DNA of 32,000 nt from an uncultured archaeon (GCA_964551375.1 CAZKBG010000001.1:777329-809328); one strand, 5' to 3'. Shown: positions 1-30,515, counted from the stretch's first letter. The notes: generated from the sequence alone by a model not told the origin. Program-made: numbers and translations.

Positions 1-959
1 GCTCAAATGCCACAGTGACGAATTCTTTTTTTGTCGGCAGAGTAAAAGCATCAAACAGTTATGACAATAATATCTATGGATACGCAGGGTATGACCAAAC
101 GCAGGCAAACAAAGATATTAATTGTTATTTTACAAATCCAACTTTATCAAGCAATGTGTATAAAGAGGACAAAACTTCAACACCAACTTATGTAACTAAC
201 GCAGGCGCAAGTTACTTCAAAGGAAAAACAAGTTTAATTCGAATAAAACCTCCATTCTCAAACAGCACAGCTCCTGACTGGAATTTTAATTATACTGCAC
301 ACGCAGGAGTATGGTTTGGATGGAATGCAGAATACCCTCACTTCATTACAGACCCTAATCCATCACGAGTACCGATTGGTGAGTATCAATCAAAGGCAGT
401 TAGTCTGGGCGGAAAAAAGAAATGCATTGCTTTGACAACTGATATGACAATAATTTCCGACAGCAATATTAAGATTCAGATTCAAGTTGCTGACAATAAT
501 GTAACTTGGTGGACCACTCCAAACTGGGTTGGCCCTGATGGAACAAGCAATACTTATTATTCAAACGGAAATTACGCAGTTCCTGATGTTAATGCAGACG
601 GGAACTGGGTAAGATGGAAAGCAATACTTTATTCAACAAGCGATTATTTGACTCCGTCGCTAAAGACAGTTGATATTAACTGCATACCGACTGGAGAAAT
701 GGTGCTTGTGGCGAATGCTAGTAATGTTGTTTGGGAAGGATTTACGTATAATGCGTTAGTTGGGGGAATTCATGGTTCGCTTGAGTGGTTGTATAAGGTT
801 GGGAATAATAGTTGGCTTAGTGCGGATAATAATGTTTTTTCTGTTTTGAATAGTGGGAATCCGCTTTATATTAAAGCAAAACTTACCGGGACAATAGATT
901 CGAACGGGCCGATAATTGATAATAATGTAGTTGTGTCTTATAGACTAAATGTTAACTAA
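1..959 (+). CDS. 3' part of a giant GLUG-like repeat surface protein; the 5' end lies upstream of the window
   Basis: The frame is open from base 3 (..SNATVTNSFFVGR..), so the GTG at 15 in the ORF track is probably internal. The segment aligns by eye with the C-terminal ~310 aa of the two full-length paralogs downstream. Shared blocks: NNSFFVGR, YFKGK, DWNFNYT.HAGVW.GW, YPHF, IQIQVADNN, GPDGT, NW.RWKA, NCIP.GEMVL.AN, PLYIKA, SYR..N-stop. Confidence 0.75.
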   Translation, partial: SNATVTNSFFVGRVKASNSYDNNIYGYAGYDQTQANKDINCYFTNPTLSSNVYKEDKTSTPTYVTNAGASYFKGKTSLIRIKPPFSNSTAPDWNFNYTAHAGVWFGWNAEYPHFITDPNPSRVPIGEYQSKAVSLGGKKKCIALTTDMTIISDSNIKIQIQVADNNVTWWTTPNWVGPDGTSNTYYSNGNYAVPDVNADGNWVRWKAILYSTSDYLTPSLKTVDINCIPTGEMVLVANASNVVWEGFTYNALVGGIHGSLEWLYKVGNNSWLSADNNVFSVLNSGNPLYIKAKLTGTIDSNGPIIDNNVVVSYRLNVN

Positions 960-1054
960 AGTTAACTGATAAATTGGGCAATTTGCCTTGTTTTAATCCT
1001 GAAAAAAGCTTTTATTTAACTTAAACCTAATTCTAGCACAAAGCAGGGAACTTA

Positions 1055-4000
1055 ATGATGGCAAATTTTAACAAATTACTTTTAGGGATCTTATTAATTT
1101 TAATAATAAGTCAGGTTTTTGCATTTAGCGGCGGAACTGGAACAAGCGGAGACCCTTACAGAGTAAATGCCTGCGCAGATATTGACTGGATGGATACTAA
1201 TGCATCTACAAAATCAGCATACTATGTTCTTGATTCAAATGTGGACTGCGGAGTATCGCCTTATAATACAGGAAGCGGGTTTACTCAAGTAACAGGATTT
1301 GCAGGATCGCTTGACGGACAAGGATACTGGGTAAAAAACTTAATGATTTACCTTCCAACAACAAATAATGTTTCACCATTTGCTGCAGGAAGCGCGTTCA
1401 CAATAAAAAATATTGGATTTGATGTAAATATCACAGGACAGGATTATGTATCCGGATTCATGACTGATTATTTGAATAGGGACTTAAATAACATAAAAGT
1501 AAGCGGAACAATAATAGGGAGAAATTATGTGGGCGGAATTACATCAAGAAGCAATGCGGGAATAAAAATCACAAACAGCTCTGTTGACTTGACTTTGATA
1601 AGCGGAAATGAATATGTAGGGGGACTTGCCGCATACTATGGAGGGGATTTCAATTACTGCACAATAAAAATAAACCGAATAGAAGGGCAGTTTTCTGTGG
1701 GCGGAGCAAGCGGATGGATGTTTAATGGAAGCAATGGAGTGTCCTATATTCAAAATACAACTGCTGACATAAACCTACTAAAAGTAACACACACTTCAGC
1801 TAATGGCTATTACACTTTAGTCGGAGGATTAGTCGGAAGATTTTCTTCAAGCGGATTTATAAGAAGCGCAAATGTGCGAGTAAATTTAATTGATGTCAAT
1901 AATGCGACTGCAGACCCTGGAAAAATAGGGGGGCTTGTCGGAGGACATGACCGCGCAGGCGGATATCTTTATGATGTAAATTTTACAGGAACAATAAATT
2001 ATCGAAACACATCTGGGGCAGCGTACCTTGGGGGAATTGTGGGGCACGAGGAATCAGGGCCAATTACTTATTCCCGCGCGGATATTAACATTGACACAAA
2101 TCTTAGCTCAGCAAGCGGAACATATGTAGGCGGAATTATTGGAAGCTCAAGTTATGATTTGAATAATATTTATGTTAATTCATCATACATTTATGCAGCG
2201 GGCACAAATGGAAATTATGTCGGAGGAGTGGGCGGCTCTTCAAGCGCAGTTTATAACGCGGTGGCTGATATTGGAGAAGTAAGAGGATTAAGCCAAGTCG
2301 GCGGGCTGCTTGGAGGCTCAGGAATTGCAGCAGGAGTAATATCTTCAAGATTAAATGCAAAAACAATTGTCGGAACAACCACCGAAATAGGCGGATTTAT
2401 CGGATACGCAAAAGGGGACGTAAATTACTGCGATTCGAACGTTCAAATCTTAATTGGCTCTCAATATGTTGGAGGGCTTCTTGGAAATTCATTCAATCAA
2501 AGCGATGCAAGCTCAAAAGTTTATATGACTAATAGTTATGTTCGGGACATGAATGTAACAAATCCAACAAGCGTGGGCGGGCTTGTGGGGCGATTTTCAG
2601 GAAGAAGAGTGGAACGTTCTTTTGCGGAAGTAAAAAGACTATATGTTGATAATTCAGTCGGAAACGACGCGCTCATCGGAGGGCTGATTGGACAAACTGG
2701 ATACTCTGACTGGACAATAAGAGACTCAAATTCACGAGCGCAGATAGATTACACTTACAGCGGAGCATCAAACAATAGTTATATTGGAGGAATTGCAGGA
2801 AATACTGGAACTCCTATAAGCGGATGCAGGGCAGATGTAAATATTGATGCTGATTTAGGCACAAAAGCTCCAAATTATGTGGGCGGGATTACTGGAAAAT
2901 CAACCGGCACAATAACAAACTCTCACGCAAGCGGAGCTTACATAAAAGCAAAAAATAGCGGAGGCACTGGGGTAGGAGTGGGCGGAATTAGCGGAAGCTC
3001 ATACACAGTATATAATTCAACTTCAAATTTTATTGATATAAACGGAAACCTTAATGTTAGCGGAATCAGCGGAAACCTTGCTATTGGGGATGTGAACGGC
3101 TCAACTGCAACAATAAGCGGAATACTTTACGGAAAATACAATATCGGCGGAGCAGTAGGAAACGGAGCAAATAATTCAGTAGCAGTATTTAATTCAGGCG
3201 CAACAATAAACAAAATATATGCTGATAATTCAACAGCAAATGATATGTCTGTAGGTGGAGTGGTGGGGGTTATTACAAATGCAAGAACAGTAACTGGTTG
3301 CTGGGCAAGGATTGGAACAATTTATGCAAAAAATACGAGCGCATCAAACACTGGCGGAGTGGGAGGAGTTGCGGGATATGTTTATCAAAACTCAAACAAT
3401 GCCCCGATGAGAGATTCAAACGCAATAGTTTCACTAATACAATATGAAAGCACAAGCACAGGAGATGCATTTGTTGGAGGACTGGCTGGGAGACAAATGG
3501 GGCTTGTATCAAATTCTTGGGCGGATGTAAATATTGACGCGTCAATTGGAACATACACTGGCGGATATGTGGGCGGGCTTGTCGGGTACGCATATGGGGT
3601 AGTATCAAATTCGTGGGCAAGAGGAAATTATATTAAAGCAACAAAAACAAATTCGCAATATGTTGGCGGACTTGTGGGAAGATCTACTGGGATAACAAAT
3701 TCCTATTCAATATTTTCTGATATAAACGGGCTGACAAAAGTGGGCGGGCTTGGGGGATACTCAAGCGGAGCGGTGCTTGACTCAAATTCAGTTTTAAATA
3801 GCGTTAATGGGACAAGCAATGTTGGCGGATTAATTGGACTCGGAGATTCTGATGTTAACAGGTCAAAAACAATAATTGGCACAATAACTGGGACAATGCT
3901 TGTGGGGGGAGTAATAGGCGAATTATCCAACAGCTCCACATTTATGTATGATTTAAGCGCGGATGTAAATTTAATAAAAGTAACACACACAGCAGGCGGA

Positions 4001-5632
4001 CAAATTAATGCAGGGGGAATAATCGGGCTTGCAACAAACACAAAAGGAATGAGACAAGCTGCTGCGAGAATTAAATTAATGGATATAAATAATTCAAGCG
4101 GAAGCGATGCAGGCGGAATTGGAGGAATTGCGGGATATTTGTATCACAATGCAAATACAGCACAACTCTTAGACGCAAATTCAACAGTTCAAATAAATTA
4201 CACAAACTCAAGCACAGGCGCAGGATATATCGGGGGAGTAGTTGGGTTGCATAATGGATATATTTCAAACTCTTGGGCTGACTCAAATATTAATGCAGAA
4301 CTTGGAACAAGAAGCGGAACTTATGTCGGCGGACTTGCGGGAAATGCTGCAAGTTATATTTCAAATTCATATTCGACAGGCGGGAATATCCTCGCATCAA
4401 AGACAGGTGGGGGATATGTTGGTGGACTTGCTGGAAGAATTGGCGGAGCAGCAACAAATGTCTACGCACTCTACAATGACGTCAACGGAGTTGACTATAC
4501 TGGAGGACTTATAGGAAGCGGGCAAGGCGCAGTAAATACATACACAATAAATCGAACAGTGTATGGTGCAGATAGAGTAGGGGGATTAATCGGCTATTCC
4601 AGAGGGGATATAAACACTTCCTACTCAGGAGATGCAAATGTAATTGGAAGCACAAATGTAGGGGGAATAACAGGATACTATGATCCGCCCGGAACAACAT
4701 ATCACATAAATAATTCATTTACAACAACAAGAGTAACAGGAAGTTCAGTAACAGGCGCAGTAACAGGATATGTAGTAACATACAGCTGGCCTTCGCCTCC
4801 AGTAGTAAACACATACTACACTTTCGGCTCGGCAGCGGCTGGAAGAGGGACACTTGAAAGCGATGGACCATCATATTTTAAAGGAAAAGGAAAAACACTT
4901 CTTGGAATAACCCAAGGAACTTCCCCAAAACACCCTTATGCAAATCCTGATGCAAATTGGAATTTTAATTACACAGGGCACCCTGGGCTTTGGTACGGCT
5001 GGCAGTTAAGCTACCCGCATTTTACAACAGACCCTATTGTTACTTATGTTCCTAATGGAGAATATCAATCAAGAGCAATTGATTTAAGCTCAATGAAAAA
5101 ATGCATCGCGCTAACTACAAACATGATAAAACCTACTGACAGCAATATCAAAATCCAAATACAAGTTGCTGATAATAATACTTCATGGTGGGCATCTCCA
5201 AACTGGATGGGGCCTGACGGGACAGACAATACTTATTATTCAAACGGAAGTTATTCAATTCCTGACATTAATGCTGATGGAAATTGGATAAGATGGAGAG
5301 CAGTATTCACTTCCTCAAGCGACAGCTTAACTCCAACTCTAATAAGCATTGACTTTAACTGCATACCAATAGGGGAAATGGTGTTAATTGCGAATGGAAA
5401 TAATCTTAACTGGAGAGGGATAGCTTACAATGCGATAACCGGCGGAATAAACGGCTCGCTTGAGTGGCTTTACAAAATAGGAAGCGGAAATTGGGATTCA
5501 ATTGATAATAATTCCTTCCCTGCGCTAACCACTGGAACTCCTCTTTATATTAAAGCAATAATGACTGGAACAATAGATTCCAATGGACCAATAATGGATA
5601 ATAATATTGTTTTATCCTACCGCCCTAATTAA
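1055..5632 (+). CDS. giant secreted/surface protein with GLUG-like repeats (predicted beta-helix adhesin-like), 1525 aa
   Basis: Uninterrupted 4.6-kb ORF. Signal-peptide-like N-terminus (MMANFNKLLLGILLILIISQVFA then FSGG). The cap region (GDPYRV..C..ID, GF.QVTGFAGSLDGQGYWVKNL) resembles the N-terminal cap of GLUG-motif proteins. Dozens of ~20-25-aa units follow, centred on (Y)VGG(L/I)(V/A/I)G and often followed by N-S-(Y/W)-A. It ends in the shared ~250-aa C-terminal module. Many N-x-S/T sequons. No C-terminal TM or known sorting signal. Confidence 0.8.
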   Translation: MMANFNKLLLGILLILIISQVFAFSGGTGTSGDPYRVNACADIDWMDTNASTKSAYYVLDSNVDCGVSPYNTGSGFTQVTGFAGSLDGQGYWVKNLMIYLPTTNNVSPFAAGSAFTIKNIGFDVNITGQDYVSGFMTDYLNRDLNNIKVSGTIIGRNYVGGITSRSNAGIKITNSSVDLTLISGNEYVGGLAAYYGGDFNYCTIKINRIEGQFSVGGASGWMFNGSNGVSYIQNTTADINLLKVTHTSANGYYTLVGGLVGRFSSSGFIRSANVRVNLIDVNNATADPGKIGGLVGGHDRAGGYLYDVNFTGTINYRNTSGAAYLGGIVGHEESGPITYSRADINIDTNLSSASGTYVGGIIGSSSYDLNNIYVNSSYIYAAGTNGNYVGGVGGSSSAVYNAVADIGEVRGLSQVGGLLGGSGIAAGVISSRLNAKTIVGTTTEIGGFIGYAKGDVNYCDSNVQILIGSQYVGGLLGNSFNQSDASSKVYMTNSYVRDMNVTNPTSVGGLVGRFSGRRVERSFAEVKRLYVDNSVGNDALIGGLIGQTGYSDWTIRDSNSRAQIDYTYSGASNNSYIGGIAGNTGTPISGCRADVNIDADLGTKAPNYVGGITGKSTGTITNSHASGAYIKAKNSGGTGVGVGGISGSSYTVYNSTSNFIDINGNLNVSGISGNLAIGDVNGSTATISGILYGKYNIGGAVGNGANNSVAVFNSGATINKIYADNSTANDMSVGGVVGVITNARTVTGCWARIGTIYAKNTSASNTGGVGGVAGYVYQNSNNAPMRDSNAIVSLIQYESTSTGDAFVGGLAGRQMGLVSNSWADVNIDASIGTYTGGYVGGLVGYAYGVVSNSWARGNYIKATKTNSQYVGGLVGRSTGITNSYSIFSDINGLTKVGGLGGYSSGAVLDSNSVLNSVNGTSNVGGLIGLGDSDVNRSKTIIGTITGTMLVGGVIGELSNSSTFMYDLSADVNLIKVTHTAGGQINAGGIIGLATNTKGMRQAAARIKLMDINNSSGSDAGGIGGIAGYLYHNANTAQLLDANSTVQINYTNSSTGAGYIGGVVGLHNGYISNSWADSNINAELGTRSGTYVGGLAGNAASYISNSYSTGGNILASKTGGGYVGGLAGRIGGAATNVYALYNDVNGVDYTGGLIGSGQGAVNTYTINRTVYGADRVGGLIGYSRGDINTSYSGDANVIGSTNVGGITGYYDPPGTTYHINNSFTTTRVTGSSVTGAVTGYVVTYSWPSPPVVNTYYTFGSAAAGRGTLESDGPSYFKGKGKTLLGITQGTSPKHPYANPDANWNFNYTGHPGLWYGWQLSYPHFTTDPIVTYVPNGEYQSRAIDLSSMKKCIALTTNMIKPTDSNIKIQIQVADNNTSWWASPNWMGPDGTDNTYYSNGSYSIPDINADGNWIRWRAVFTSSSDSLTPTLISIDFNCIPIGEMVLIANGNNLNWRGIAYNAITGGINGSLEWLYKIGSGNWDSIDNNSFPALTTGTPLYIKAIMTGTIDSNGPIMDNNIVLSYRPN
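2078..4277 (+). repeat. three ~230-250-aa super-repeat periods inside the 1055-5632 gene
   Basis: The anchor motif (R/W)AD(I/V/S)NI(D/N) + L/I-G-T + YVGG recurs at about nt 2078, 2831, 3521 and 4277, giving periods of 753, 690 and 756 nt. Each period holds about ten GLUG-like units in similar order. Confidence 0.6.
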
Positions 5633-5750
5633 AATGATCTTTTTTAACGCCTCAATTTTAATTAATGGTCAATGGCAAGGATTAAATATCTAAAATAACT
5701 AACTCTTCTGACTTGTTGGTCGAATTTTGAAAGTGAACTTTGTGAAAATT

Positions 5751-8700
5751 ATGAAAAAAATAATTCTTGCGCTGATTATTTTATGTATTTCAGCAACTGT
5801 ATTTTCAATAAACATCTCCGACTGCACAGGGCTTCAATCAATGAGCGGCGCAAACAGTTACACTTTGACTGGGAATATTGACTGCACTGCGACAAATACT
5901 TGGAACAGCGGAGCGGGATTTGCGCCAATAACTTCCTTCACTGGAACGCTTAACGGCGCAGGATACACGATAAGGGGATTGTATATTAATAGAACTGGAT
6001 CAAACAGTCAGGCGCTAATCGGGACAAGCACAAATGCCACATTAACAAATATTGTTTTTGAAGACGCTAATATTGCAATGTACAATTACGGAGGAGTGCT
6101 TCTTGCAAATGGGAGCGCAACAATATCAAATATTACTGTAAGAAATTCAATTATACGCTCGGTGGGAAATGTTGGGTATGTTGGAGGAATTGCGGGAAAT
6201 TATACCGGCGGGCAGTTTACAAACAGCTCAATTTATGGCTCAGTGGTAAGCGGACCAGGGTATGTCGGAGGATTGATTGGAAAATTCGGAATGGCTTCAA
6301 ATAACGCTTCAATAGACATAAATGACTGTTATGCGGATTTAAATTCAGTTACTTCAAGCGGGGATTATGTTGGCGGAATAGTGGGACAGCTCACAAATAC
6401 TGGGACAGGAACTTTGAGTTCAATCAACCGCTCAACAGCAGTAGTAAGAACTTTGTTTGGATACTCCTATGTCGGAGGAATTGTGGGCTCTCACGTTGGG
6501 GCTGGCGGAACAATTTCTGATGTTAATATAACTTTAAGCAGCTGGAGTCTTCGAGGCTCAAGCTTTGCGCGAATAGGTGGAATAGCAGGAAACTTGGCTG
6601 GAACTTTGACAAGATCATTTGCAATAATAAATCTTGATATCAATAACACCTCCGCATCAGGAGATTATGTCGGAGGGCTTGTCGGTTACGGATTAGGCTC
6701 CACAATTTCAGATTCATACGCTGATGTAAATATTGACACTACAATAAGCAATGCAGAAAGAGTAAATGCATATGTTGGAGGAATTGTGGGTTATGGGAGC
6801 AATATTTATCGTTCATACGCGCGAGGATACAAATTATACTCCGGACAATACACTGGAATGTATGTCGGAGGGCTTGCCGGAAGACTTGACGGAAATATTT
6901 CAGACTCAAACGCAACATTTACCTCAATAATCGGAGGAGGCGGATATTATGGAGACGGATATGTCGGCGGACTTGTGGGATACTTTCACGGAAATTATAT
7001 AATACGAAGCAAAGCAACAGCAAATTTAGTTAAAGTGACAAGAGCAAATTCAGTTGCCAATTATGCAGGCGGATTAATAGGGGGAATATCAACAGCAGGA
7101 AATAAAGACATTAACAACTGCACAGTGGATGTAAATAATGTTGAAGGATTTAGAACAAGCAATGGAAGTGATTCAGGAATTAGCGGATTAATAGGATTTG
7201 TAGCAAATGTTGCCGGAATTCACGTATCAATAAATCAAACTTCTGTTCGGTCAAAATTACTTTACGCAACAGGAGATGGAATCGGCGGATTTATTGGGTA
7301 CATGGTTAACTCTTCGGGCTCGCTAACAATAACAGATTCAAACGCAACAATTGAAAGAATACACTTATACGGCGGAGCAGGATACGGGTATGTCGGCGGG
7401 CTAATAGGAAGAGCATCAGTTGGAAGAGCAAACATAACAAACTCATTTGCAATATCCCAAATAGATATTAATCTTCCATCAAGCTCAAATGGCCTTGGAT
7501 ATGTCGGCGGACTTGCAGGCGCGATTGGGACAGGAAATGTTTCGGATTCATGGGCTGACACAAATGTAAATGGAAACTTTAACACCTATTCTCCAAGGTA
7601 TGTCGGCGGGTTAATTGGAAGCGCTGATGTTAATTTAATCAGAACATATGCAAGAGGAACTTATCTTGACGCAAACAAAAGCGGAGGATATTATGTTGGG
7701 GGACTTGCAGGAGCATGCTCATGGAATGTAACTGATTCAAACGCAACTTTTGAAAGAATAGACGGCAGCGGCTCATATTACGGAGACGCATATATTGCAG
7801 GGCTCGTTGGAAGTTTTACAGGAAATTATATTTTAAGAAGCAAAGCAATAGTAACTTCAATAACCGCGCCAACCTATCCAACTAACTTTGTTGGAGGCTT
7901 AGTCGGAGGAATTGGAGTAGCAGGAAATAAGGATATTAATTATTGCAGCGCGGATGTAAATATAATTTCAGCAACAAAAACAAGCAACGGCTCAACAACA
8001 GGAGTAGGTGGGTTAATAGGATTTGTGGCAAATGTTGCAATCAATTTATCAATAAATAATTCATCCGCTCGAACAGGGACTATTTATGGAATAGGAGACG
8101 GGCTTGGGGGATTACTTGGATATATGGTCAGCTCATCAGGCTCATTAAAAATAATTGATTCAAACGCAATTACTGACAGAATATATTTTTACGGGGGCGG
8201 AGGGAGTGGATACTTTGGCGGTCTTGCAGGAAGAGCCTATGCTGGCAGAGTAGATATAAATAATTCATTTGCAATTTCTCAAATAGATGTTAACGCAACA
8301 GCAGGTCTTGATTATGTCGGAGGGTTAGCAGGAGAGGCATCTTTATCAGGACTAATATACAACTCATGGGCTGACACAAACATTAACGGCTCGTTTGGAA
8401 CATATTCTCCGGGAAATGTTGGAGGGCTTTTTGGCTCGGCAGATGTAAATATAATTCAATCATATGCGCGAGGAAATTATATAAAAATAACCAAAGCAAA
8501 CGGCTCAAATGTGGGCGGATTTGCCGGAAAATTATCAGGAGATGTTTTGGATTCAAATGTTGTGTTTGTTGATATTAATGGAAGCAGTTCCTCATATGGT
8601 TATGGATATGTGGGCGGGTTTGTCGGATATTATACAGGCGGGTATATTTTAAGAAGCAAAGTTAATGCAGTACATGTCACTGGATACAGGGCAGACTCGC

Positions 8701-10358
8701 TAACGGATAAAGTAGGAGGGTTTATTGGATATGTTAGGTCAACAAAAGCCACTGACATAAACGACTGCTTTGTCACAGTAACTGCAGTGCGCGGATACAA
8801 AAATAACAACGGCAGCAGCTCAAATGTGGGCGGATTAATCGGAGACTCATACGGTTCATATCCTTTAACAATAAATCATTCATTTGTAAATGCAGATTTA
8901 ATCAGCGCAACCTCATCAGAAGTAGGCGGCTTAGTCGGGAATTCAAACAGATCTCCGTTAGTTATAATGGACTCAAACGCAGTGGTCAGACAAATAGTTG
9001 TTACTGGGACTCCGGGAAGAATTGGGGGGCTTGTTGGAAGCGCATCAACAAACTCTTTAATTACAAATACTTACGCTTCATCAAATTTAATTTTAAGCAA
9101 TTCCTCAGTATCGCCAGCTTATTACGGAGGGCTAATCGGACACATTGGAGGAGGGCTTGTGACAAAATCATACGCTGACACTAATATTGATGCAACAATT
9201 GGGGCTTATTCAGGCTCCCAAATAGGCGGATTAATCGGATACTCTGCCGCGCAGATACTAAACACTTATGCGCACTCAGGGTACATAATGGCAACAAAAT
9301 CCTACGGCTCAAGAATTGGGGGGCTTGTAGGACACCTTGACTCAACAGTGACAAACTCTTATGCAATAGTCGACACTGATGTAAACGGAGTGGATAACAT
9401 TGGAGGGGTGGCAGGATATGTTGGAAACACATACTCAGTTAATAATTCATTCTTTGTTGGAAGAGCAAAAGCAACAAGCACTCCTGATAACAATATTGTT
9501 GGAAATGCCTCCGCATCTAATGTAGTTAATTGTTATTTTTACAAAACAGGAGCTGCTTCAGTGTGCAGCCAAAGCGGAACAACAGTAACCTGTGGAATAG
9601 ACAATCCTTCTATGACTGATTATTTTAAAGGCAAAACAAGCACAATCAGATTAAGAGCTCCTTTCTCCGGCGGGGCAGTGGATTGGAATTTTAATTACAC
9701 AGGACACGCAGGAGTATGGTACGGGTGGTACAGAGATTATCCTCACTTTATACTTGACCCAACTACGCCGCATGTGCCTGTCGGAGAATACAAATCAGTT
9801 CCGTTAGAATTAGCAACTGCAAAAAAATGCCAGTATATTGATTTTAATTTTGTGCAGGTGGGAAACTCTGATGTGAATATACAGATACAAATCGGAGATT
9901 TAAACGCTGCAATGTGGGATGATTCAAACTGGTTCGGACCGGACGGCACAAGTTCAACAGCATATACTTTAACAAGCGACAAAAATATTCCATCCTCAAA
10001 AGGAAACGGCAAATGGATAAGATGGAAAGCAATGCTTTACGCTTCAACAGAAGGCGAAACCCCTGCGTTAAAAAGCGTTGACTTTAATTGTATACCAATA
10101 GGCGAAATGGTTTTAGTAGCAAATGCAGACCTTGCTACCTGGTATAGAATTGATTATAATGAAATATTTTCAGGAACACACGGCACAGTTGACTGGCTGT
10201 ATAATGTTGGATTTGGATGGGGAACAATAACACTCAATTCATTCCCTCCCGCAATTATGGGAAGCCCGCTTTATTTGAAAGCAAAAATAGCGGGAAGGGC
10301 GGATTCAAATGTTCCGGCAATTGACAACAATATTATGGTCGCATATAGGGTAAATTAG
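5751..10358 (+). CDS. giant secreted/surface protein with GLUG-like repeats, paralog of 1055-5632 (about 1535 aa from the ATG at 5751)
   Basis: The ORF track starts at TTG 5727. ATG 5751 gives a cleaner signal-peptide-like N-terminus (MKKIILALIILCISATVFS). Cap region: C.GLQSM...Y.LTGNIDC....W....GF.PI.SFTGTLNGAGYTIRGLYI. A long GLUG-like YVGGL.G repeat array follows, then the shared C-terminal module (YFKGK...IQIQIGD...GPDGT...NCIPIGEMVLVAN...AYRVN-stop). Confidence 0.8.
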   Translation: MKKIILALIILCISATVFSINISDCTGLQSMSGANSYTLTGNIDCTATNTWNSGAGFAPITSFTGTLNGAGYTIRGLYINRTGSNSQALIGTSTNATLTNIVFEDANIAMYNYGGVLLANGSATISNITVRNSIIRSVGNVGYVGGIAGNYTGGQFTNSSIYGSVVSGPGYVGGLIGKFGMASNNASIDINDCYADLNSVTSSGDYVGGIVGQLTNTGTGTLSSINRSTAVVRTLFGYSYVGGIVGSHVGAGGTISDVNITLSSWSLRGSSFARIGGIAGNLAGTLTRSFAIINLDINNTSASGDYVGGLVGYGLGSTISDSYADVNIDTTISNAERVNAYVGGIVGYGSNIYRSYARGYKLYSGQYTGMYVGGLAGRLDGNISDSNATFTSIIGGGGYYGDGYVGGLVGYFHGNYIIRSKATANLVKVTRANSVANYAGGLIGGISTAGNKDINNCTVDVNNVEGFRTSNGSDSGISGLIGFVANVAGIHVSINQTSVRSKLLYATGDGIGGFIGYMVNSSGSLTITDSNATIERIHLYGGAGYGYVGGLIGRASVGRANITNSFAISQIDINLPSSSNGLGYVGGLAGAIGTGNVSDSWADTNVNGNFNTYSPRYVGGLIGSADVNLIRTYARGTYLDANKSGGYYVGGLAGACSWNVTDSNATFERIDGSGSYYGDAYIAGLVGSFTGNYILRSKAIVTSITAPTYPTNFVGGLVGGIGVAGNKDINYCSADVNIISATKTSNGSTTGVGGLIGFVANVAINLSINNSSARTGTIYGIGDGLGGLLGYMVSSSGSLKIIDSNAITDRIYFYGGGGSGYFGGLAGRAYAGRVDINNSFAISQIDVNATAGLDYVGGLAGEASLSGLIYNSWADTNINGSFGTYSPGNVGGLFGSADVNIIQSYARGNYIKITKANGSNVGGFAGKLSGDVLDSNVVFVDINGSSSSYGYGYVGGFVGYYTGGYILRSKVNAVHVTGYRADSLTDKVGGFIGYVRSTKATDINDCFVTVTAVRGYKNNNGSSSNVGGLIGDSYGSYPLTINHSFVNADLISATSSEVGGLVGNSNRSPLVIMDSNAVVRQIVVTGTPGRIGGLVGSASTNSLITNTYASSNLILSNSSVSPAYYGGLIGHIGGGLVTKSYADTNIDATIGAYSGSQIGGLIGYSAAQILNTYAHSGYIMATKSYGSRIGGLVGHLDSTVTNSYAIVDTDVNGVDNIGGVAGYVGNTYSVNNSFFVGRAKATSTPDNNIVGNASASNVVNCYFYKTGAASVCSQSGTTVTCGIDNPSMTDYFKGKTSTIRLRAPFSGGAVDWNFNYTGHAGVWYGWYRDYPHFILDPTTPHVPVGEYKSVPLELATAKKCQYIDFNFVQVGNSDVNIQIQIGDLNAAMWDDSNWFGPDGTSSTAYTLTSDKNIPSSKGNGKWIRWKAMLYASTEGETPALKSVDFNCIPIGEMVLVANADLATWYRIDYNEIFSGTHGTVDWLYNVGFGWGTITLNSFPPAIMGSPLYLKAKIAGRADSNVPAIDNNIMVAYRVN
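6711..9164 (+). repeat. three ~270-aa super-repeat periods inside the 5751-10358 gene
   Basis: The anchor D/N/K-S-(Y/W)-A-D-(V/T)-N-(I/V)-(D/N) starts at nt 6711, 7545, 8361 and 9165, in frame, giving periods of 278, 272 and 268 aa. Long collinear blocks recur in each period: RSYARG.Y, VGGLAG, DSNATF..I.G.G.YYGD.Y..GLVG.F.GNYI.RSKA, AGNKDIN.C..DVN, SNGS..G..GLIGFVANVA, GSL.I.DSNA. Confidence 0.65.
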
Positions 10359-10416
10359 CGGATTAGAAAGGATTAAAAAGAATCAAAACATTATCTTTGA
10401 AAAGGTTTGATACAAA

Positions 10417-11100
10417 ATGCATGCAAAAAAAAGGGGACAGGGAACAATTGAATACCTTGTTATAATAGCGGTTGTAATTGTGCTTGCATTAGTAACATCA
10501 TATTTTATGATGGGCTCGCTTGGCTCGGCTTCAGCAGCAGAAAAGGCTTCGTTAAAAACAGCATGGCAGACAAAAGAAGTGGGAATTGCCGATTTTGCAG
10601 TTGATTCAGACGGAGCGGGAAAAATTGCCATAATGAATAACTCTGGCGAATTTGTGAGAATAAAGAAAGTTTATGTTGACGGAGTGCTTGTTTATGACGG
10701 AACGCTTTCACTTGGAAATTTTGATAGATATGTAGTGGGTTCTTTTGCTGAAAATGTGACTTCTTGCAGCGCGGACAGAAGATACAGTATAAGAATAATT
10801 TACGAGGCTGAAAGCGGGCTTGAAGATGAAGTGAGCGGAGACTTGTACGCAGAATGCATGGCAAGATTGAATGAAGGCGCGCTAAGATTCTTGCAGTTAA
10901 CCGACGCGAATTTGAGTCTTGGGGACACAATCAACGTTTCAGCAGCAACAGGATACTTTACTTTAATTGACGCCAACTTTGTGAACTCAAGAAGCATAAC
11001 TTATGGAAATGAAGGCTTTGGAGAGTACGGCGGCGTTGATTTAAACACAACAAGAAACACCGATAACAACTATATAGAACTTGACGTACAAGCTGAATAA
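10417..11100 (+). CDS. archaeal type IV pilin-like protein (class III signal peptide), 227 aa
   Basis: The N-terminus MHAKKRG-QGTIEYLVIIAVVIVLALV has a short basic leader, Gly at -1, Gln at +1, Glu at +5 and a hydrophobic helix. That is the class III / prepilin-peptidase substrate pattern. The C-terminal ~190 aa are not recognisable. Confidence 0.7.
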   Translation: MHAKKRGQGTIEYLVIIAVVIVLALVTSYFMMGSLGSASAAEKASLKTAWQTKEVGIADFAVDSDGAGKIAIMNNSGEFVRIKKVYVDGVLVYDGTLSLGNFDRYVVGSFAENVTSCSADRRYSIRIIYEAESGLEDEVSGDLYAECMARLNEGALRFLQLTDANLSLGDTINVSAATGYFTLIDANFVNSRSITYGNEGFGEYGGVDLNTTRNTDNNYIELDVQAE

Positions 11101-12217: not shown

Positions 12218-13387
12218 ATGGATTTAAAGAGTGTGAAAAAAATGAGTGAAACAAAAGTAATTTCAGGCTCAATTGCGGTTGCAGAAGCAGTAAAGCAGTG
12301 CAAACCAAAAGTGCTTCCAATGTATCCAATAACTCCAAGCACACTAATACCAGAAAAGCTATCTGAAATGGTTGCAAACGGAGAGCTTGACTCAAGAATA
12401 ATTTACGTTGAAAGCGAACACTCAGCAATAAGTGCGCTTTACGGAGTATACGGAACAGGAATACGCGGATTCACAGCGACAGCATCACAGGGAATGGCAT
12501 TAATGCATGAAATACTTCCAATAATGTCAGGCGCAAGATTTCCAGCAGTAATGGCAGTCGCAAACAGAGCTTTGTCAGGACCATTAAATATTTGGAATGA
12601 CCACTCAGACACAATGAGTGAAAGAGACCAAGGGTGGATACAATTCTACTGCGAAAATAATCAGGAAGCATACGACACAATTTTGATGGCTTATAAAATT
12701 GCAGAAGCGGAACAAGTGCAAATTCCAGTAATGGTTTGCATTGACGGATTTTACTTAACTCACTCATACGAGCCGGTTGTAATTGAAGACCAGAAAAAAG
12801 TCGACGCATTTGTGCCTGAATACAAACCAGAACACTATCTTGACACTAAAAATCCAAAAACATTCGGACCAATAGCTTATCCAAATGTTTACATGGAATA
12901 CAGAGAACATCAGGAAAAAGCAATGCAGGAAGCGCTAAAAATAATTCCAAAAGTTCACGAAGAATTCAAAAAAGCATTCGGCAGAAGCTACGGAGACGGA
13001 CTTGCAGAAGGAATTGAATTAAGAGACGCAGAATATGCGCTACTTTGCACAGGCTCAGTTTTAGGGACTGCAAAAGAAACAATGAAAGAACTAAGAGCAA
13101 AGGGAAAAAAAGTAGGATTAATAAAATTAAAATCAGTAAGACCGCTTCCTGTTGAAGAACTAAAAAAATTAGCTTCAAAATTAAAGGGACTAGGGGTAAT
13201 AGACAGACACGCTTCGCTTGGATTTGGAGGCGCGCTCACTAACGACATCAAAGCAGCACTTTCAGGAGAAAAAGTTAAAGTTACTGGATTTGTGGCAGGA
13301 CTTGGAGGAAGAGATATTAACAGAGCAAGACTGCACAAAGCTTATGAAACAGTAATGAAAGGAGAAGAAGGATACTGGCTCAAGTGA
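12218..13387 (+). CDS. porA: pyruvate/2-oxoacid:ferredoxin oxidoreductase, alpha subunit
   Basis: 389 aa. MYPITPST, ESEHSAISA and GFTATASQGMALMHE are typical of POR/VOR alpha subunits. The operon context supports the call. Confidence 0.9.
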   Translation: MDLKSVKKMSETKVISGSIAVAEAVKQCKPKVLPMYPITPSTLIPEKLSEMVANGELDSRIIYVESEHSAISALYGVYGTGIRGFTATASQGMALMHEILPIMSGARFPAVMAVANRALSGPLNIWNDHSDTMSERDQGWIQFYCENNQEAYDTILMAYKIAEAEQVQIPVMVCIDGFYLTHSYEPVVIEDQKKVDAFVPEYKPEHYLDTKNPKTFGPIAYPNVYMEYREHQEKAMQEALKIIPKVHEEFKKAFGRSYGDGLAEGIELRDAEYALLCTGSVLGTAKETMKELRAKGKKVGLIKLKSVRPLPVEELKKLASKLKGLGVIDRHASLGFGGALTNDIKAALSGEKVKVTGFVAGLGGRDINRARLHKAYETVMKGEEGYWLK

Positions 13388-20560: not shown

Positions 20561-20666
20561 AAGGGCTTTAAAATATGATTATTAGGCGCTTTTAGTCATG
20601 TATCGCATATTGTTGGACACAAGTTTTTCGGGTAAGCTTAAAAATAATAAATGCCTAAATAAAAGC

Positions 20667-21257
20667 ATGGTTGAATTAAGCGAATCAGCAAGAAAAATGG
20701 CAAAAGAAGCTGAAGAATGGGCTGAAAAACAGAAACTATTGCACATGTCCGAAATCAGCATTATTCTTGAATCATATGATTCGATATTTTCTGATTTTGA
20801 CCCACGAACTTATGCTCAAAGATCCCTTTCAGTGGATTTTTTAACTGAAATAAAGCGCGCAACAAGAGAAAACAAATCAGGAGTAATAGAGCTAAACCTG
20901 CTGATACCAGTTGAGAAAAAAAATGATGAAGTGGAGGCGAAAGTCCGAAAAAGGCTTCATGAATATTTTAGGAAACACTATGATATCACAAAAAGAGAAG
21001 TTGACGCAGTAAGAAGCAAAGGCGCAATAATGATAGGTGTTGGATTAAGTCTTTCAATGGTTGCCGCGGTTTTTGTCTACCCTACCGGATCAACTAATAT
21101 ATTAAATAATATAATTTTGGTGCTGATTGAACCTGCAGCATGGTTTACAATATGGGAAGGGGCGAACAAAGTTTTTGACACTTGGAGAGTGCTTGAGCCA
21201 GATCTTGAATTTTTTAGAAAAATGATAAAAAGCGAGATAACCTTTACAAGGTATTAG
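20667..21257 (+). CDS. hypothetical membrane protein: soluble N-terminal domain plus two C-terminal TM helices
   Basis: The ORF track starts at 20598. ATG 20667 (MVELSESARK...) follows an A/T-rich TATA-like tract (aaaaataataaa, about 20639-20650). Hydrophobic segments: GAIMIGVGLSLSMVAAVFVYP and ILNNIILVLIEPAAWFTIW. The stop is 1 nt before the next gene's ATG. No family recognised. Confidence 0.55.
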   Translation: MVELSESARKMAKEAEEWAEKQKLLHMSEISIILESYDSIFSDFDPRTYAQRSLSVDFLTEIKRATRENKSGVIELNLLIPVEKKNDEVEAKVRKRLHEYFRKHYDITKREVDAVRSKGAIMIGVGLSLSMVAAVFVYPTGSTNILNNIILVLIEPAAWFTIWEGANKVFDTWRVLEPDLEFFRKMIKSEITFTRY

Positions 21258-21258
21258 T

Positions 21259-23160
21259 ATGCAAAAAAAACTGCTGCTGCTCTTTCTGATTTTGCTCATT
21301 GCCTCAAGCGCGATGGCAAAGAGCTTCACATTCACAAATGTTGACATAAACTATGTTTTTTCCCCTGACTCAAGCGCGCAGGTGACAGAAAAGTTAACCT
21401 TTAATTTTGACGGCTCATTCAGCTTCGCATACAGGGATATTGAATTAAAAAACGGGCAAAGCGTAACTGATTTTTATGCGTATGAAGAAACCGGTGCACA
21501 ATTGATTCCGCTTATAGTTGAAGTTGAAGATACAATGGAAGGAGTGAGGGCAACATGGCACTACTCTGCTTCAAATGAGAAAAAAACATTTGTGCTCAAG
21601 TACAACTTAAAAGGCTCGGTTAATTCATATACTGATTCTTACGAATTTTACTGGAAACTTTGGGGCTCAAGCTGGGAAGCGCAGGTTGAATCATTCCGTG
21701 CTCAACTGACTTTCCCAAAATACCTTGCAGAAGGAACAAAAATCTGGATTCACCCAAAAATTGACGCAAGATACGAATGGAACGGGCCAGTTGTGGAAAT
21801 ATTCGCAAACAATATCCCCAGCGAAACATTTCTTGAAGCAAGAATACTATTCAATAAAGAAGTAATGAGCGGAGAATACGCCGTTCAAAAACAAATGAGC
21901 GGAATAACTGAAGTAAACAGAGACGAGGATTTATTTGCTGCAAGGGAAAAAGCAAATGAAGAACTCGCGGCATTAATGTGGATTGCTCCAGTTTTGTGCA
22001 TGCTGATACTCGCAGGGTCATTTATTTATTTTTATAAAAAACACGGAGTTGAACCAAATGTTAGAAAAATTCTTTACATGCGAGACATTCCGTCAGAGGA
22101 CAAACCTTATTTTGTTGATTATTTGGTGAATATGGGTGTGACTGAAAACGGACTCATAGCAACGCTTATTGATTTAGTAAGACGAAATCATATTCAAATT
22201 GAAAAAATTACTAAAGGGATGGTTTTCAAAAGCGATGATTTTGTGCTGACAAGAACAAAAGGAAATGATTCTCTTTCAAAACCTGAAGAAGAATTAATCG
22301 GGGAGTTATTTTACAACGGTGAGGAAACTCCGATTAAATTAAGCGAATTCACCGCGTACAGACGAACAATCACAACTTCACTCTTAACACAATGGGCTGA
22401 GTGGGTTGTGGAAGAACTTGGAATTAAAGGCGACAAAACCAAATACTTTAATTTTACTGGGCGAAACAACTTCATGATAATTTCAGTATTAATGATACTT
22501 GGAATTATTGCGATTGGATTTATTGCGGCGGGAGAAAATGCAATTCTCTTAATAATGGCGACTTTCATTATTGGAATGTTTTCAATAGTTATGGGAATAG
22601 GATTATTTGCAGTAAAAGGGCTTGCAAAAATTTACATAGTCGGTTTTATGCTTGTGTGGGGCGGAATGATGGGCTTTGGAGTTGGAATGGCCTTTCTTAC
22701 CGAACCAGGATTTGAAATATTAATGCCGCTTGTAATTGCGGAAATAATTTGCATATTATTTGTCACAAGCGCATTTTCAATGAAAGGAGTTCTTCCAAGC
22801 ATTCTGCCGGAGTGGGCGCAAAAACGCGAAGAATGGGAAGGCTTGCAAAGATTTCTTGACACTTTTGGGCAGATGAAAGAAAAAACAGTTCCTGAAGTGG
22901 TTCTTTGGGAAAAATATTTAGTATTTGCGGCAGTGTTTGGAAATACTGATAAAATTCTAAAACAATATTCTGAAAGCGTAAGCGCAGAACTTGCAAAACG
23001 CAGCACCACAATGACTGCATTCTCAAGCGCGGCAGTTTACTCAAGCTTTTCTTCAAGCATGAGCTCGGGATTTAATTCATCAGTTTCAGGCTCTGGCTCG
23101 GGCGGCTCAAGCGGGGGCGGCGGCGGAGGAGGAGGCGGCGGGGGCGGCGGAGCAGGCTAA
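21259..23160 (+). CDS. DUF2207-family membrane protein with poly-Gly C-terminal tail
   Basis: Signal peptide MQKKLLLLFLILLIASSAMA. The N-terminal ectodomain shows DUF2207-like blocks (VTEKLTFNFDGSFSFAYRDI, YEFYWKLWGSSWEAQVESFRAQLTFP). There are several TM helices, and the tail SGSGSGGSSGGGGGGGGGGGGGAG is typical of this family. Confidence 0.75.
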   Translation: MQKKLLLLFLILLIASSAMAKSFTFTNVDINYVFSPDSSAQVTEKLTFNFDGSFSFAYRDIELKNGQSVTDFYAYEETGAQLIPLIVEVEDTMEGVRATWHYSASNEKKTFVLKYNLKGSVNSYTDSYEFYWKLWGSSWEAQVESFRAQLTFPKYLAEGTKIWIHPKIDARYEWNGPVVEIFANNIPSETFLEARILFNKEVMSGEYAVQKQMSGITEVNRDEDLFAAREKANEELAALMWIAPVLCMLILAGSFIYFYKKHGVEPNVRKILYMRDIPSEDKPYFVDYLVNMGVTENGLIATLIDLVRRNHIQIEKITKGMVFKSDDFVLTRTKGNDSLSKPEEELIGELFYNGEETPIKLSEFTAYRRTITTSLLTQWAEWVVEELGIKGDKTKYFNFTGRNNFMIISVLMILGIIAIGFIAAGENAILLIMATFIIGMFSIVMGIGLFAVKGLAKIYIVGFMLVWGGMMGFGVGMAFLTEPGFEILMPLVIAEIICILFVTSAFSMKGVLPSILPEWAQKREEWEGLQRFLDTFGQMKEKTVPEVVLWEKYLVFAAVFGNTDKILKQYSESVSAELAKRSTTMTAFSSAAVYSSFSSSMSSGFNSSVSGSGSGGSSGGGGGGGGGGGGGAG

Positions 23161-30372: not shown

Positions 30373-30515
30373 TTTTTTCAACTAACTCAGCTCGCTTAAC
30401 TTAACTTGCAAAAAGCCAAAAACAGCCAAGGCAGGAAGCAAATTTTGGTTTAAAGTAAGCTTTATTAAGAACAATTCACTTATTTTTCCAACAAGCTAGG
30501 GCAATTTGTGGTTGG

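Follow-up and report, generated by a model that had tools for sequence, protein, structure and literature searches.

GLUG-repeat proteins of a small-genome DPANN archaeon and their possible display on a pilin-like partner

We propose that three GLUG-repeat proteins, encoded in tandem at one end of a 32,000-nucleotide stretch of archaeal DNA (the window), are adhesins without an anchor of their own, which would be held on the cell by docking of a shared C-terminal “A+B” module onto a pilin-like anchor encoded next to them; we put the probability of this reading at roughly one half. The sequences of the three proteins, P0 (from “gene 0”), P1, and P2, support their secretion and a beta-helix-type architecture made of GLUG repeats, and we infer both their display at the surface and their adhesive function. 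The host belongs to the small-genome (~1-Mb) DPANN archaea, group Iainarchaeota/Diapherotrites: relatives of its Hel308 are named Ca. Iainarchaeum/Diapherotrites and lie on contigs of ~1 Mb, and the contig carrying the array measures 946 kb. The initial annotation had seen here a small-genome archaeon making a large investment in one array, and both descriptions hold, the GLUG genes taking up 1.4% of the contig (13.0 kb).

The GLUG-repeat array

The array had first been described as tandem, same-strand, giant paralogs, one cut by the window edge and two of about 4.6 kb, and the open reading frames bear this out: positions 1–10358 are occupied by three consecutive plus-strand ORFs (Table 1). 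In full, gene 0 encodes the public protein P0002, 1274 aa long, with its own signal peptide and a C-terminus identical to that encoded at 3–959. P1 ends in “...VLSYRPN,” and for P2 a TTG or GTG start further upstream is possible, the public call P0003 beginning 18 nt upstream of the ATG. Neither of two protein searches returned a fourth family member, and scanning the window with Rfam and for tRNAs gave no hits.

Table 1. Features of the GLUG array and the adjoining pilin-like gene in the window.
Feature	Position (nt)	Strand	Remarks
Gene 0, 3' end	1–959	+	ORF 3–959; 318 codons; cut by window edge
Gene 0, last GLUG rungs and C-cap		+	in window
Gene 0, sub-domain A	~369–683	+	
Gene 0, sub-domain B	~684–956	+	
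Spacer gene 0/P1	960–1054	+	95 nt; A/T-rich; candidate TATA-like ttttatttaa ~40 nt before ATG, read from sequence
P1	1055–5632	+	1525 aa; GLUG gene
P1, N-terminal parts			Sec signal peptide aa 1–23; Cys-pair cap
P1, GLUG rungs (~33–37)	1697–4675	+	strict-motif units; looser VGGL units from ~aa 159
P1, C-cap/linker	4712–5047	+	
P1, sub-domain A	5048–5362	+	
P1, sub-domain B	5363–5629	+	
Spacer P1/P2	5633–5750	+	118 nt; T-run after P1 stop; A/T-rich, candidate TATA-like stretch, read from sequence
P2	5751–10358	+	1535 aa from ATG at 5751; GLUG gene
P2, N-terminal parts		+	Sec signal peptide; Cys-pair cap
P2, GLUG rungs (~31)	6180–9416	+	
P2, C-cap/linker	9444–9773	+	
P2, sub-domain A	9774–10091	+	
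P2, sub-domain B	10092–10355	+	
Pilin-like partner gene	10417–11100	+	227 aa; 58 nt past P2 stop; PF04021

The architecture ascribed to the paralogs, namely a signal peptide, a Cys-containing cap, more than 1000 aa of repeats, and a shared C-terminal module, is present in all three proteins. Each has 31–37 units of the form xGG[LIV]xG, spaced 27–37 aa apart over ~1000–1070 aa, and G, N, S, and T together make up ~43–44% of the composition. That these repeats are GLUG-like is confirmed by the Pfam search, where PF07581 (GLUG) exceeds its gathering score of 20.5 bits in all three (36.2 bits in P1, 63.2 bits over four stretches in P2, and 51.0 bits in P0002). Block-wise BLAST resolves the GLUG region into super-repeat blocks of ~8 rungs, 252–274 aa long; the N-terminal cap has a conserved Cys pair, and the helix is closed by a cap with the pattern W..F...W..W..YP.F. 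The N-x-S/T sequons are indeed dense (2.4–2.6 per 100 aa); against shuffled sequences of equal composition, P1 shows a modest excess (z = 2.1), as does P2 (z = 3.6), and gene 0 shows none (z = 0.1), so that the density is mostly compositional.

By profile comparison, the GLUG units are homologous to the solved beta-helix of the M26 IgA1 proteases. A family profile, A3, built on the cap and first rungs, matches the IgA1 protease structures 6XJB, 7JGJ, 6XJA, 7UVK, and 7UVL (E ~1e-11; 1.6e-11 for 6XJB and related chains) and also 3N6Z, and the matched residues fall within the solved NTD beta-helix (781–1070), which binds IgA1 Fab and gates (PMC7695701). The match came from the family profile only, single-sequence searches of the PDB giving none. 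In Pfam, PF05342 (the M26 N-terminal region) is found in the relative L079_760 (31.1 bits, cutoff 27.7 bits) and weakly in P0009, with no direct detection in P1 or P2. The beta-helix that was to be checked is thus supported by profile homology of the cap and first rungs.

The paralogs, as judged from their sequences, are old diverged copies without a trace of gene conversion. End to end, P1 and P2 are 32% identical, and the C-terminal 310-aa modules of gene 0, P1, and P2 are 47–54% identical to one another, with a DNA identity of 66–74% at the C-terminal end. Recombination between paralogs had been put forward as a source of surface variation; this is unsupported, because the longest exact stretch of DNA that the paralogs share is 17–23 nt.

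Hydrophobicity windows pick out the N-terminal signal peptide of each protein and nothing beyond it, which bears out the claimed absence of a C-terminal TM helix. Neither NCBIfam nor the hydrophobic windows revealed a PGF-CTERM-type or other sorting signal, and Pfam gave no match to an LPXTG wall anchor or to G5 domains.

The C-terminal module and the pilin-like neighbor

The 310-aa C-terminal module common to all three proteins contains two all-beta sub-domains, “A” and “B.” AlphaFold2, run with a 16-sequence alignment, predicts all-beta domains for residues 115–311 at a pLDDT of ~85–90, whereas residues 1–114 of the modelled module (the last rungs and the C-cap) stayed low-confidence; an earlier prediction with 4 sequences had reached a pLDDT of 36. 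Among the 18 proteins in which the profile match continues past sub-domain A, the module lies at most ~55 aa from the C-terminus in 17 (P0001–P0010, P0012, P0018, P0022, P0031, P0035, P0045, and P0085), the exception being P0083 with ~115 aa after it; P0029, P0037, and P0102 match sub-domain A and a short overhang only. Invariant residues are conserved across the module, which is found on non-GLUG passengers too, namely P0031 (three Laminin_G_3) and P0035 (Gly-rich). No known family in Pfam or NCBIfam corresponds to it, and its profile found no match in species-representative genomes.

The ORF at 10417–11100 had been overlooked in the initial annotation, and its family shows a consistent linkage to the C-terminal module. 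The product scores 31.2 bits against PF04021 (cutoff 23.7 bits) and starts with a class III (prepilin) signal, MHAKKRGQG/TIEYLVIIAVVIVLALV, after which come a Cys-containing core and, over the last ~65 aa, a variable tail; hydrophobic windows start at aa 6–20, and the segment spans ~aa 6–38.

In 7/7 pilin contexts, the pilin-like gene adjoins an A+B carrier, or the stub of such a gene, on the same strand and at gaps of 0–58 nt. The gap is 58 nt in the window, 15 nt in L070, and 5 nt in L072; P0185 is followed by P0031 after 0 nt, P0166 by P0035 after 7 nt (462/462 aa identical), and P0176 after 5 nt by a 1247-aa GLUG protein with A+B (hmm E 1e-98), while P0173 is followed by a GLUG stub (signal peptide and cap) and then by IS66. 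The last two contexts were picked solely for their long contigs, as a prediction test of the linkage. The family member in L073 has no adjoining pilin-like gene, and the same copy carries two premature stops. None of 120 pilin-profile hits contains A+B. That the shared module always adjoins one particular pilin-like gene in these pilin contexts suggests that a pilin partner keeps the proteins attached to the cell, and the neighboring gene is probably the answer to the puzzle of the missing anchor.

Fusion proteins join the same parts in a single chain. At the L079 locus, two fusions (588 aa and 760 aa) are composed of a class III signal, a pilin core, a GLUG helix, and a C-cap, without A+B; their alignment with the free pilin-like protein covers ~160 aa, from which it follows that GLUG replaces the pilin tail. 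P0254 is likewise a fusion of class III signal, pilin core, and GLUG, and the evidence from fusions comprises this protein and the one locus.

In the mechanism we propose, P0, P1, and P2 would be Sec-exported, rod-shaped surface proteins in which the Cys-pair cap comes first after cleavage of the signal peptide. The rods would be roughly 15–18 nm long, assuming the ~4.8 Å per rung of parallel beta-helices. The A+B module, likeliest through its strictly C-terminal sub-domain B, would dock each rod non-covalently onto the product of 10417–11100, the N-terminal hydrophobic helix of which would be embedded in the membrane or form part of a type IV pilus-like fibre, and the variable C-terminal tail of which would form the docking site. 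A single pilin-like anchor could in this way display three strongly diverged rods as alternatives, for attachment to a host cell or substrate. Within the 32-kb window, we found no gene for a type IV filament ATPase, a platform protein, or a prepilin peptidase.

More tentatively, and at somewhat less than even odds, A+B and its dedicated pilin-like neighbor may make up, in DPANN archaea of the Iainarchaeota type, a two-gene cassette for cargo display that has not been described before. The module would then be a portable docking device for unrelated passengers (GLUG helices, Laminin_G lectins, and Gly-rich rods), with one anchor and three interchangeable adhesins in the present case, and the pilin-GLUG fusions would be its one-polypeptide version.

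Alternative readings

The alternative that survives best, which we nevertheless consider rather unlikely, is that the GLUG adhesins are secreted or loosely associated with the envelope, that A+B is a lectin-like ligand-binding tip, and that the pilin-like gene is merely co-regulated and provides no anchor. Among solved structures, Foldseek ranks two-domain beta-sandwich proteins that bind carbohydrate or collagen as the best matches, namely CBM32 (4a42, prob 0.98, TMt 0.49), F-lectin, and the ColG collagen-binding tandem, with no propeller among them, and there is a weak F5/8-type-C match over one copy of sub-domain A in P0011. Sub-domain A is furthermore frequent inside large multidomain extracellular proteins and occurs at the far C-terminal end of pilin-like proteins from bacteria, a position that fits ligand binding at least as well as docking. 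However, no fold match to the module is significant (none at E<0.001), and a ligand-binding tip leaves unexplained both why the module of unrelated passengers tracks one pilin-like family in all seven contexts and why it is lost in the pilin-GLUG fusions.

A structural role, with the proteins serving as S-layer-like components of the envelope and not as adhesins, we regard as very improbable. In its favor, the proteins are large, secreted, and Gly/Asn/Ser/Thr-rich with many sequons, and DPANN envelopes are poorly known; yet the three paralogs are just 32–54% identical, family members range from 670 to 1994 aa in length, and neither a TM segment nor a sorting signal is present at the C-terminus. 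P2 shares 53% identity with its ortholog in the close relative L070, and the pilin-like protein shares 56%, whereas the seven flanking housekeeping proteins reach 73–89%; such fast evolution is typical of exposed proteins and fits the display that we propose. Relatives also hold inactivated copies, unexpected for an essential lattice protein: a copy in the close relative L073 has two in-frame premature stops, and one in another genome, L077, is truncated beside an IS66 element. Two other explanations for differences in these relatives were considered and rejected. Recoding of TGA in L073 fails in that TGA serves as an ordinary stop codon in these genomes and that a by-eye alignment with the paralogs sets the two stop positions against different residues, and the L070 ortholog has undergone no N-terminal domain swap, its extra region of ~240 aa preceding an ordinary cap.

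There is a slimmer chance still that the proteins are enzymes, either IgA1-like proteases or beta-helix enzymes acting on polysaccharides. Many parallel beta-helices are glycan-active enzymes, and the cap and GLUG region are homologous to the N-terminal domain of IgA1 protease; in that protease, however, the beta-helix is a domain for substrate binding and gating, not the catalytic one. The window proteins have no HExxH and few histidines (5–13 residues per protein), and the Pfam and NCBIfam searches recovered GLUG as the sole family, with no peptidase family.

Least credible is that the array consists of decaying, non-functional pseudogenes: decay in relatives, which the initial annotation had named as evidence against its reading, is found in part, in the L073 and L077 copies, but the syntenic ortholog in L070 is intact, as is the full product of gene 0, the two ~4.6-kb ORFs are uninterrupted and retain their signal peptides, and the invariant residues of the module are conserved.

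Related systems and significance

GLUG-motif proteins in archaea include the products of 15 genes in Methanimicrococcus blatticola, read as putative adhesins (PMC9723798), and halomucin-like large exoproteins (PMC3119063). The attachment role originally suggested for the array agrees, by analogy, with the former reading (PMC9723798), and it is a role we still infer. Repeats above the Pfam threshold, a large secreted architecture, several copies per genome, and a presumed function in adhesion are common to these proteins and to those of the window, which differ in the C-terminal two-beta-sandwich module, in the linkage to a pilin-like gene, in the lack of a membrane anchor, and in GLUG solenoids that are far longer (~31–37 rungs). 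With the M26 IgA1 metalloproteases (S. pneumoniae IgA1P, 6XJA/6XJB/7JGJ; 7UVK/7UVL, 3N6Z) the window proteins share a homologous cap and GLUG rungs; unlike them, they are without the Peptidase_M26 domain, HExxH, G5, and LPXTG, have a helix ~4 times longer, and come from an archaeal host.

Archaeal type IV filament loci have been noted to include PilY-like or large adhesin-like genes (bioRxiv 10.64898/2026.04.22.720090). The window resembles the PilY1/PilC adhesins carried on minor pilins of bacterial type IV pili in that a pilin-like gene neighbors the gene for a large non-pilin adhesin exported by Sec and that non-covalent presentation by the pilin is proposed. Unlike in PilY1, the predicted docking module is made of beta-sandwiches and not of a beta-propeller, and no homology to PilY1 was detected; unlike in PilY1/PilC, the cassette has two components and stands, within the window, outside a filament-machinery locus. 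In the modular pilins PilB and PilC of Streptococcus sanguinis (PMC8179133, PMC9934059), an adhesive module is likewise carried on a type IV pilin scaffold, as in the fusions of L079 and P0254. P0, P1, and P2, in contrast, are separate polypeptides with Sec signals, and their link to the pilin would be made in trans via A+B.

DPANN archaea are believed to live in attachment to other cells. To our knowledge, little has been described of the way in which they hold and present their surface proteins, and we know of no function assigned to the GLUG motif in any archaeon. Should nothing more than the base observation hold, the array adds one further example of a reduced genome with large adhesin-like paralogs, which is useful and unsurprising. 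The analysis also flags two undescribed domains, a widespread sub-domain and a lineage-restricted C-terminal domain, the widespread one being an extracellular beta-sandwich of ~100 aa with ~330 cluster representatives, some with bacterial type IV pilin-type N-termini. If the docking is true, the anchor, the docking module, and the exchangeable rod would together form a testable attachment apparatus, which would provide a sequence signature for such adhesins in metagenomes and would be an archaeal counterpart of bacterial pilus-tip adhesins.

Architecture and fold of the GLUG proteins

Open reading frames and translations bear out the initial annotation of three consecutive plus-strand paralogs (gene 0, P1 and P2), each with a Sec-type signal peptide, a cap in which a Cys pair is conserved, a repeat region and a common C-terminal region of ~310 residues. 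The repeat region spans ~1000–1070 residues and holds 31–37 xGG[LIV]xG units per protein, 27–37 residues apart. The complete product of gene 0 is available in public data (P0002, 1274 aa), with its own signal peptide and a C-terminus identical to that encoded in the window. In all three proteins the signal peptide is the sole hydrophobic segment, hence, as first noted, there is no C-terminal transmembrane helix. Gly, Asn, Ser and Thr make up ~43–44% of residues; N-x-S/T sequons are indeed present (37 in P1, 40 in P2), but their reported density is largely compositional, the excess over the composition-shuffled expectation being modest in P1 (z = 2.1) and P2 (z = 3.6) and absent in gene 0 (z = 0.1).

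Features of the window and of related contigs
Feature	Sequence	Position	Strand	Description
gene 0	window	3–959	+	cut by window edge; ORF listing and translation
P1	window	1055–5632	+	1525 aa; ORF listing and translation
Sub-domain A of P1	window	5048–5362
P2	window	5751–10358	+	1535 aa counted from ATG; ORF listing and translation
Sub-domain A of P2	window	9774–10091
Pilin-like gene	window	10417–11100		class III signal protein
PorA	window	12218–13387
ORF and DUF2207 gene	window	20598–23160		219-aa ORF without Pfam match, ending 1 nt ahead of DUF2207 membrane protein start
Hel308	window	28237–30372		711 aa, without intein
Terminal ORF	window	~30458–32000	+	at least 514 codons, runs past window end
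P0005	L070	178–4698		GLUG gene
GLUG family gene	L073 (GCA_964544205.1)	928–5466		~1512 codons
GLUG stub and following genes	L077 (JGI Ga0247842_10000133)	8648–10582		119-aa stub (signal peptide and cap), DUF2080 gene, IS66-family transposase

The Pfam GLUG model (PF07581, threshold 20.5 bits) matches P1, P2 and P0002 at 36.2, 63.2 and 51.0 bits, all above threshold, which by sequence places the window proteins in the GLUG repeat family. An NCBIfam search of the GLUG proteins and PDB searches with single sequences gave no match. A profile of the cap and first rungs built from six family members, however, matches the IgA1 proteases 6XJB, 7JGJ, 6XJA, 7UVK and 7UVL with E of about 1e-11, and also 3N6Z. 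The aligned chain residues, ~778–1018 of the S. pneumoniae protease, lie inside the experimentally determined β-helix of its N-terminal domain (781–1070), which controls active-site access as well as binding IgA1 Fab (PMC7695701). This points to a β-helix fold for the window GLUG proteins, by homology to a solved structure rather than from a model of their own, and both the GLUG and the β-helix signal expected by the initial annotation are thus recovered. The helix is made up of super-repeat blocks of ~252–274 aa (~8 rungs each), neighboring blocks being 33–61% identical; given this and the spread of family lengths (670–1994 aa), block duplication appears to underlie changes in length. That the three genes encode secreted, adhesin-like GLUG β-helix surface proteins is the narrower claim, and one we hold to be very probable.

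Divergence of the array and its host

Overall identity between P1 and P2 is 32%; between the C-terminal modules of the paralogs it is 47–54% for protein and 66–74% for DNA, and the longest exact DNA run shared by any two paralogs is 17–23 nt. Judged by these values the three genes were duplicated long ago and give no evidence of gene conversion, which leaves the earlier idea of paralog recombination as a source of variation unsupported. On a syntenic 25-kb metagenome contig (L070) there is a single giant GLUG gene, intact and with the window's neighbor genes after it, although the contig begins only 177 nt upstream of that gene, limiting the copy count there. The P2 ortholog on it is 53% identical, against 73–89% for the seven flanking housekeeping proteins; the surface genes of the array are fast-evolving.

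In this ortholog from a related organism (P0005), an additional N-terminal stretch of ~240 aa, rich in Cys and weakly matching PKD-like domains, precedes an ordinary cap, and there are 24–25 GLUG units versus 31 in P2. The family gene on L073 is a single reading frame without frameshift, interrupted by TGA codons at 1417 and 3058, both in frame; since TGA ordinarily serves as a stop codon in these genomes, the gene looks recently inactivated, or is possibly an assembly or population variant. Its locus differs from the window: ferritin flanks it at one end, dCMP deaminase, archease and RtcB flank it at the opposite end, and there is no pilin-like neighbor. L073 and L026 come from one MAG, and the L026 PorA shares 89% identity with that of the window. 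At L077, the stub followed by a DUF2080 gene and a transposase suggests a cargo gene disrupted by an insertion sequence.

The neighboring window genes are archaeal (class III signal protein, porGDAB, DtdA, ADP-forming acetyl-CoA synthetase, PurF, Dus, grpE-dnaK-dnaJ, Hel308), and the window proteins are located on an NCBI contig of 946,135 nt. The nearest named relatives of Hel308 are from Ca. Iainarchaeum sp. (66% identity), Ca. Diapherotrites (64%) and Ca. ainarchaeum (57%), several relatives being on contigs of ~0.98–1.03 Mb, which gives good support to a DPANN host whose genome is close to 1 Mb. The array, at 13.0 kb, takes up 1.4% of the contig, in keeping with the large outlay proposed for a small-genome archaeon.

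Many close Hel308 relatives (P0299, P0302, P0316 and others) are ~1200 aa long and contain intein/homing-endonuclease domains (PF14528, PF14890). PorA, compared with loci L001–L069, is closest to L026, then to Methanocellales (50–53%), with lower scores in DPANN (Nanoarchaeota and Micrarchaeota 46–47%, Ca. ainarchaeum 44%), perhaps a hint that the por operon was laterally transferred. From its N-terminal transmembrane segment and Ig-like/prealbumin-like domain (PF24025, 8.5e-8), the terminal ORF probably codes for a further envelope protein.

The C-terminal module and its pilin-like neighbor

A word-index search with the C-terminal module found one homolog among 5.8 billion proteins, and an exhaustive HMM search with a four-sequence profile gave 336 matches, ~ten of which cover the whole module, the remainder sharing only sub-domain A, the first of its two sub-domains. 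Sub-domain A (~100 aa, profile positions 115–221) has a strong consensus, …GPDGT..tyYt.sG…RyiQYKayL.T.d…TP.L.dvtInY (proteins P0011–P0150), and occurs in ~330 cluster representatives, often in tandem. In large secreted proteins it accompanies RCC1, Kelch, FG-GAP or Ig-like domains, and it is also C-terminal in proteins with bacterial type IV pilin N-termini. As no Pfam or NCBIfam model matches it, sub-domain A looks like an undescribed extracellular domain family. AlphaFold2 (16 sequences) models module residues 115–311 as all-β domains at pLDDT ~85–90; Foldseek finds no significant match to this model in the PDB, the nearest, non-significant folds being tandem β-sandwich binding modules (peptidylglycine alpha-hydroxylating monooxygenase (PHM), ColG collagen-binding domains, F-lectin and CBM32). 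Where the profile match runs well past sub-domain A, 17 of 18 proteins end within ~55 aa of the module and P0083 has ~115 aa more, a count outside which fall P0029, P0037 and P0102, matching sub-domain A and a short overhang only. The full module (A+B) is also found on non-GLUG passengers, P0031 (three Laminin_G_3 domains) and P0035 (Gly-rich).

The pilin-like protein encoded after P2 begins MHAKKRGQG|TIEYLVIIAVVIVLALV and matches the class III signal peptide model PF04021 at 31.2 bits (cutoff 23.7). In every readable pilin context, a homolog of its gene adjoins a module carrier (at L077, the stub) on the same strand with a gap of 0–58 nt; L079 and L077 were picked solely for their long contigs, as a prediction test of the linkage. 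From the cargo genes outward, a pilin-like gene is found in 4 of 5 informative contexts, the exception being the L073 copy with its in-frame stops.

Order and spacing of pilin-like and carrier genes
Context	Gene order	Gap (nt)
window	P2, pilin-like	58
L070	GLUG ortholog, pilin-like	15
L072	pilin-like, GLUG P0009	5
JGI 366,784-nt contig	P0185, Laminin_G carrier P0031	0
L075	P0166, P0035 (462/462 aa identical)	7
L079	P0176, 1247-aa GLUG with A+B (hmm E 1e-98)	5
L077	P0173, 119-aa signal-peptide-plus-cap stub, IS66	5

The flanking GLUG genes of L079 (588 and 760 aa) encode fusions of a class III signal, a pilin core, a GLUG helix and the C-cap that closes it, the core aligning with the free pilin-like protein over ~160 aa; P0254 is a similar fusion. 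A+B is absent from both L079 fusions and from all 120 pilin-profile matches. Free pilin-like proteins combine a conserved core with unrelated tails of ~65 aa, and by eye the tail types appear to track the cargo module type. A second paralog elsewhere on the 946-kb contig, P0161, has another tail: it is ~74% identical to the window protein over the first ~150 aa and unrelated over the last ~65. By the linkage rule, P0161 should adjoin a further carrier of A+B, which may lie upstream of gene 0.

Docking and its alternatives

The pilin linkage, the fusions and the fact that A+B and pilin core exclude each other are observations. Their most economical reading, to which we give a probability of about 0.5, is that Sec exports the GLUG rods and that the C-terminal module would dock onto the pilin-like protein, so retaining the anchorless rods, with the N-terminal helix of the pilin-like protein embedded either in the membrane or within a fiber resembling a type IV pilus. 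The contacts would probably be between sub-domain B and the variable pilin tail, the proposed docking site, whose place is taken by the GLUG helix in the fusions. We infer the physical interaction, the surface location and the adhesive function of the GLUG proteins.

The main rival, in which A+B serves as a lectin-like tip for ligand binding and the pilin-like gene is merely co-regulated, draws on the fold resemblances to binding modules and on the distal sub-domain A of bacterial pilin-like proteins, but it sits poorly with a family-specific pilin linkage across unrelated passengers and with the loss of A+B in the pilin–GLUG fusions, and we consider it rather unlikely. Structural envelope proteins, enzymes and pseudogenes are each unlikely readings of the array; Pfam, NCBIfam and a motif check found no protease domain, HExxH motif or family other than GLUG in its proteins.

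Other archaeal GLUG proteins have been noted as putative adhesins, among them 15 in M. blatticola, in a study that describes the motif as of unknown function (PMC9723798), and halomucin-like exoproteins (PMC3119063). The window proteins are distinct from M26 proteases, PilY1 homologs, modular pilins and sorting-signal-anchored proteins, because defining features of each were tested and are absent. By analogy, their function would be like that of PilY1/PilC-type pilus-presented adhesins, and the functional counterparts of their fused relatives would be the modular pilins of S. sanguinis (PMC8179133, PMC9934059). What is new beyond known GLUG proteins is the apparently undescribed C-terminal module together with a dedicated pilin-like partner.
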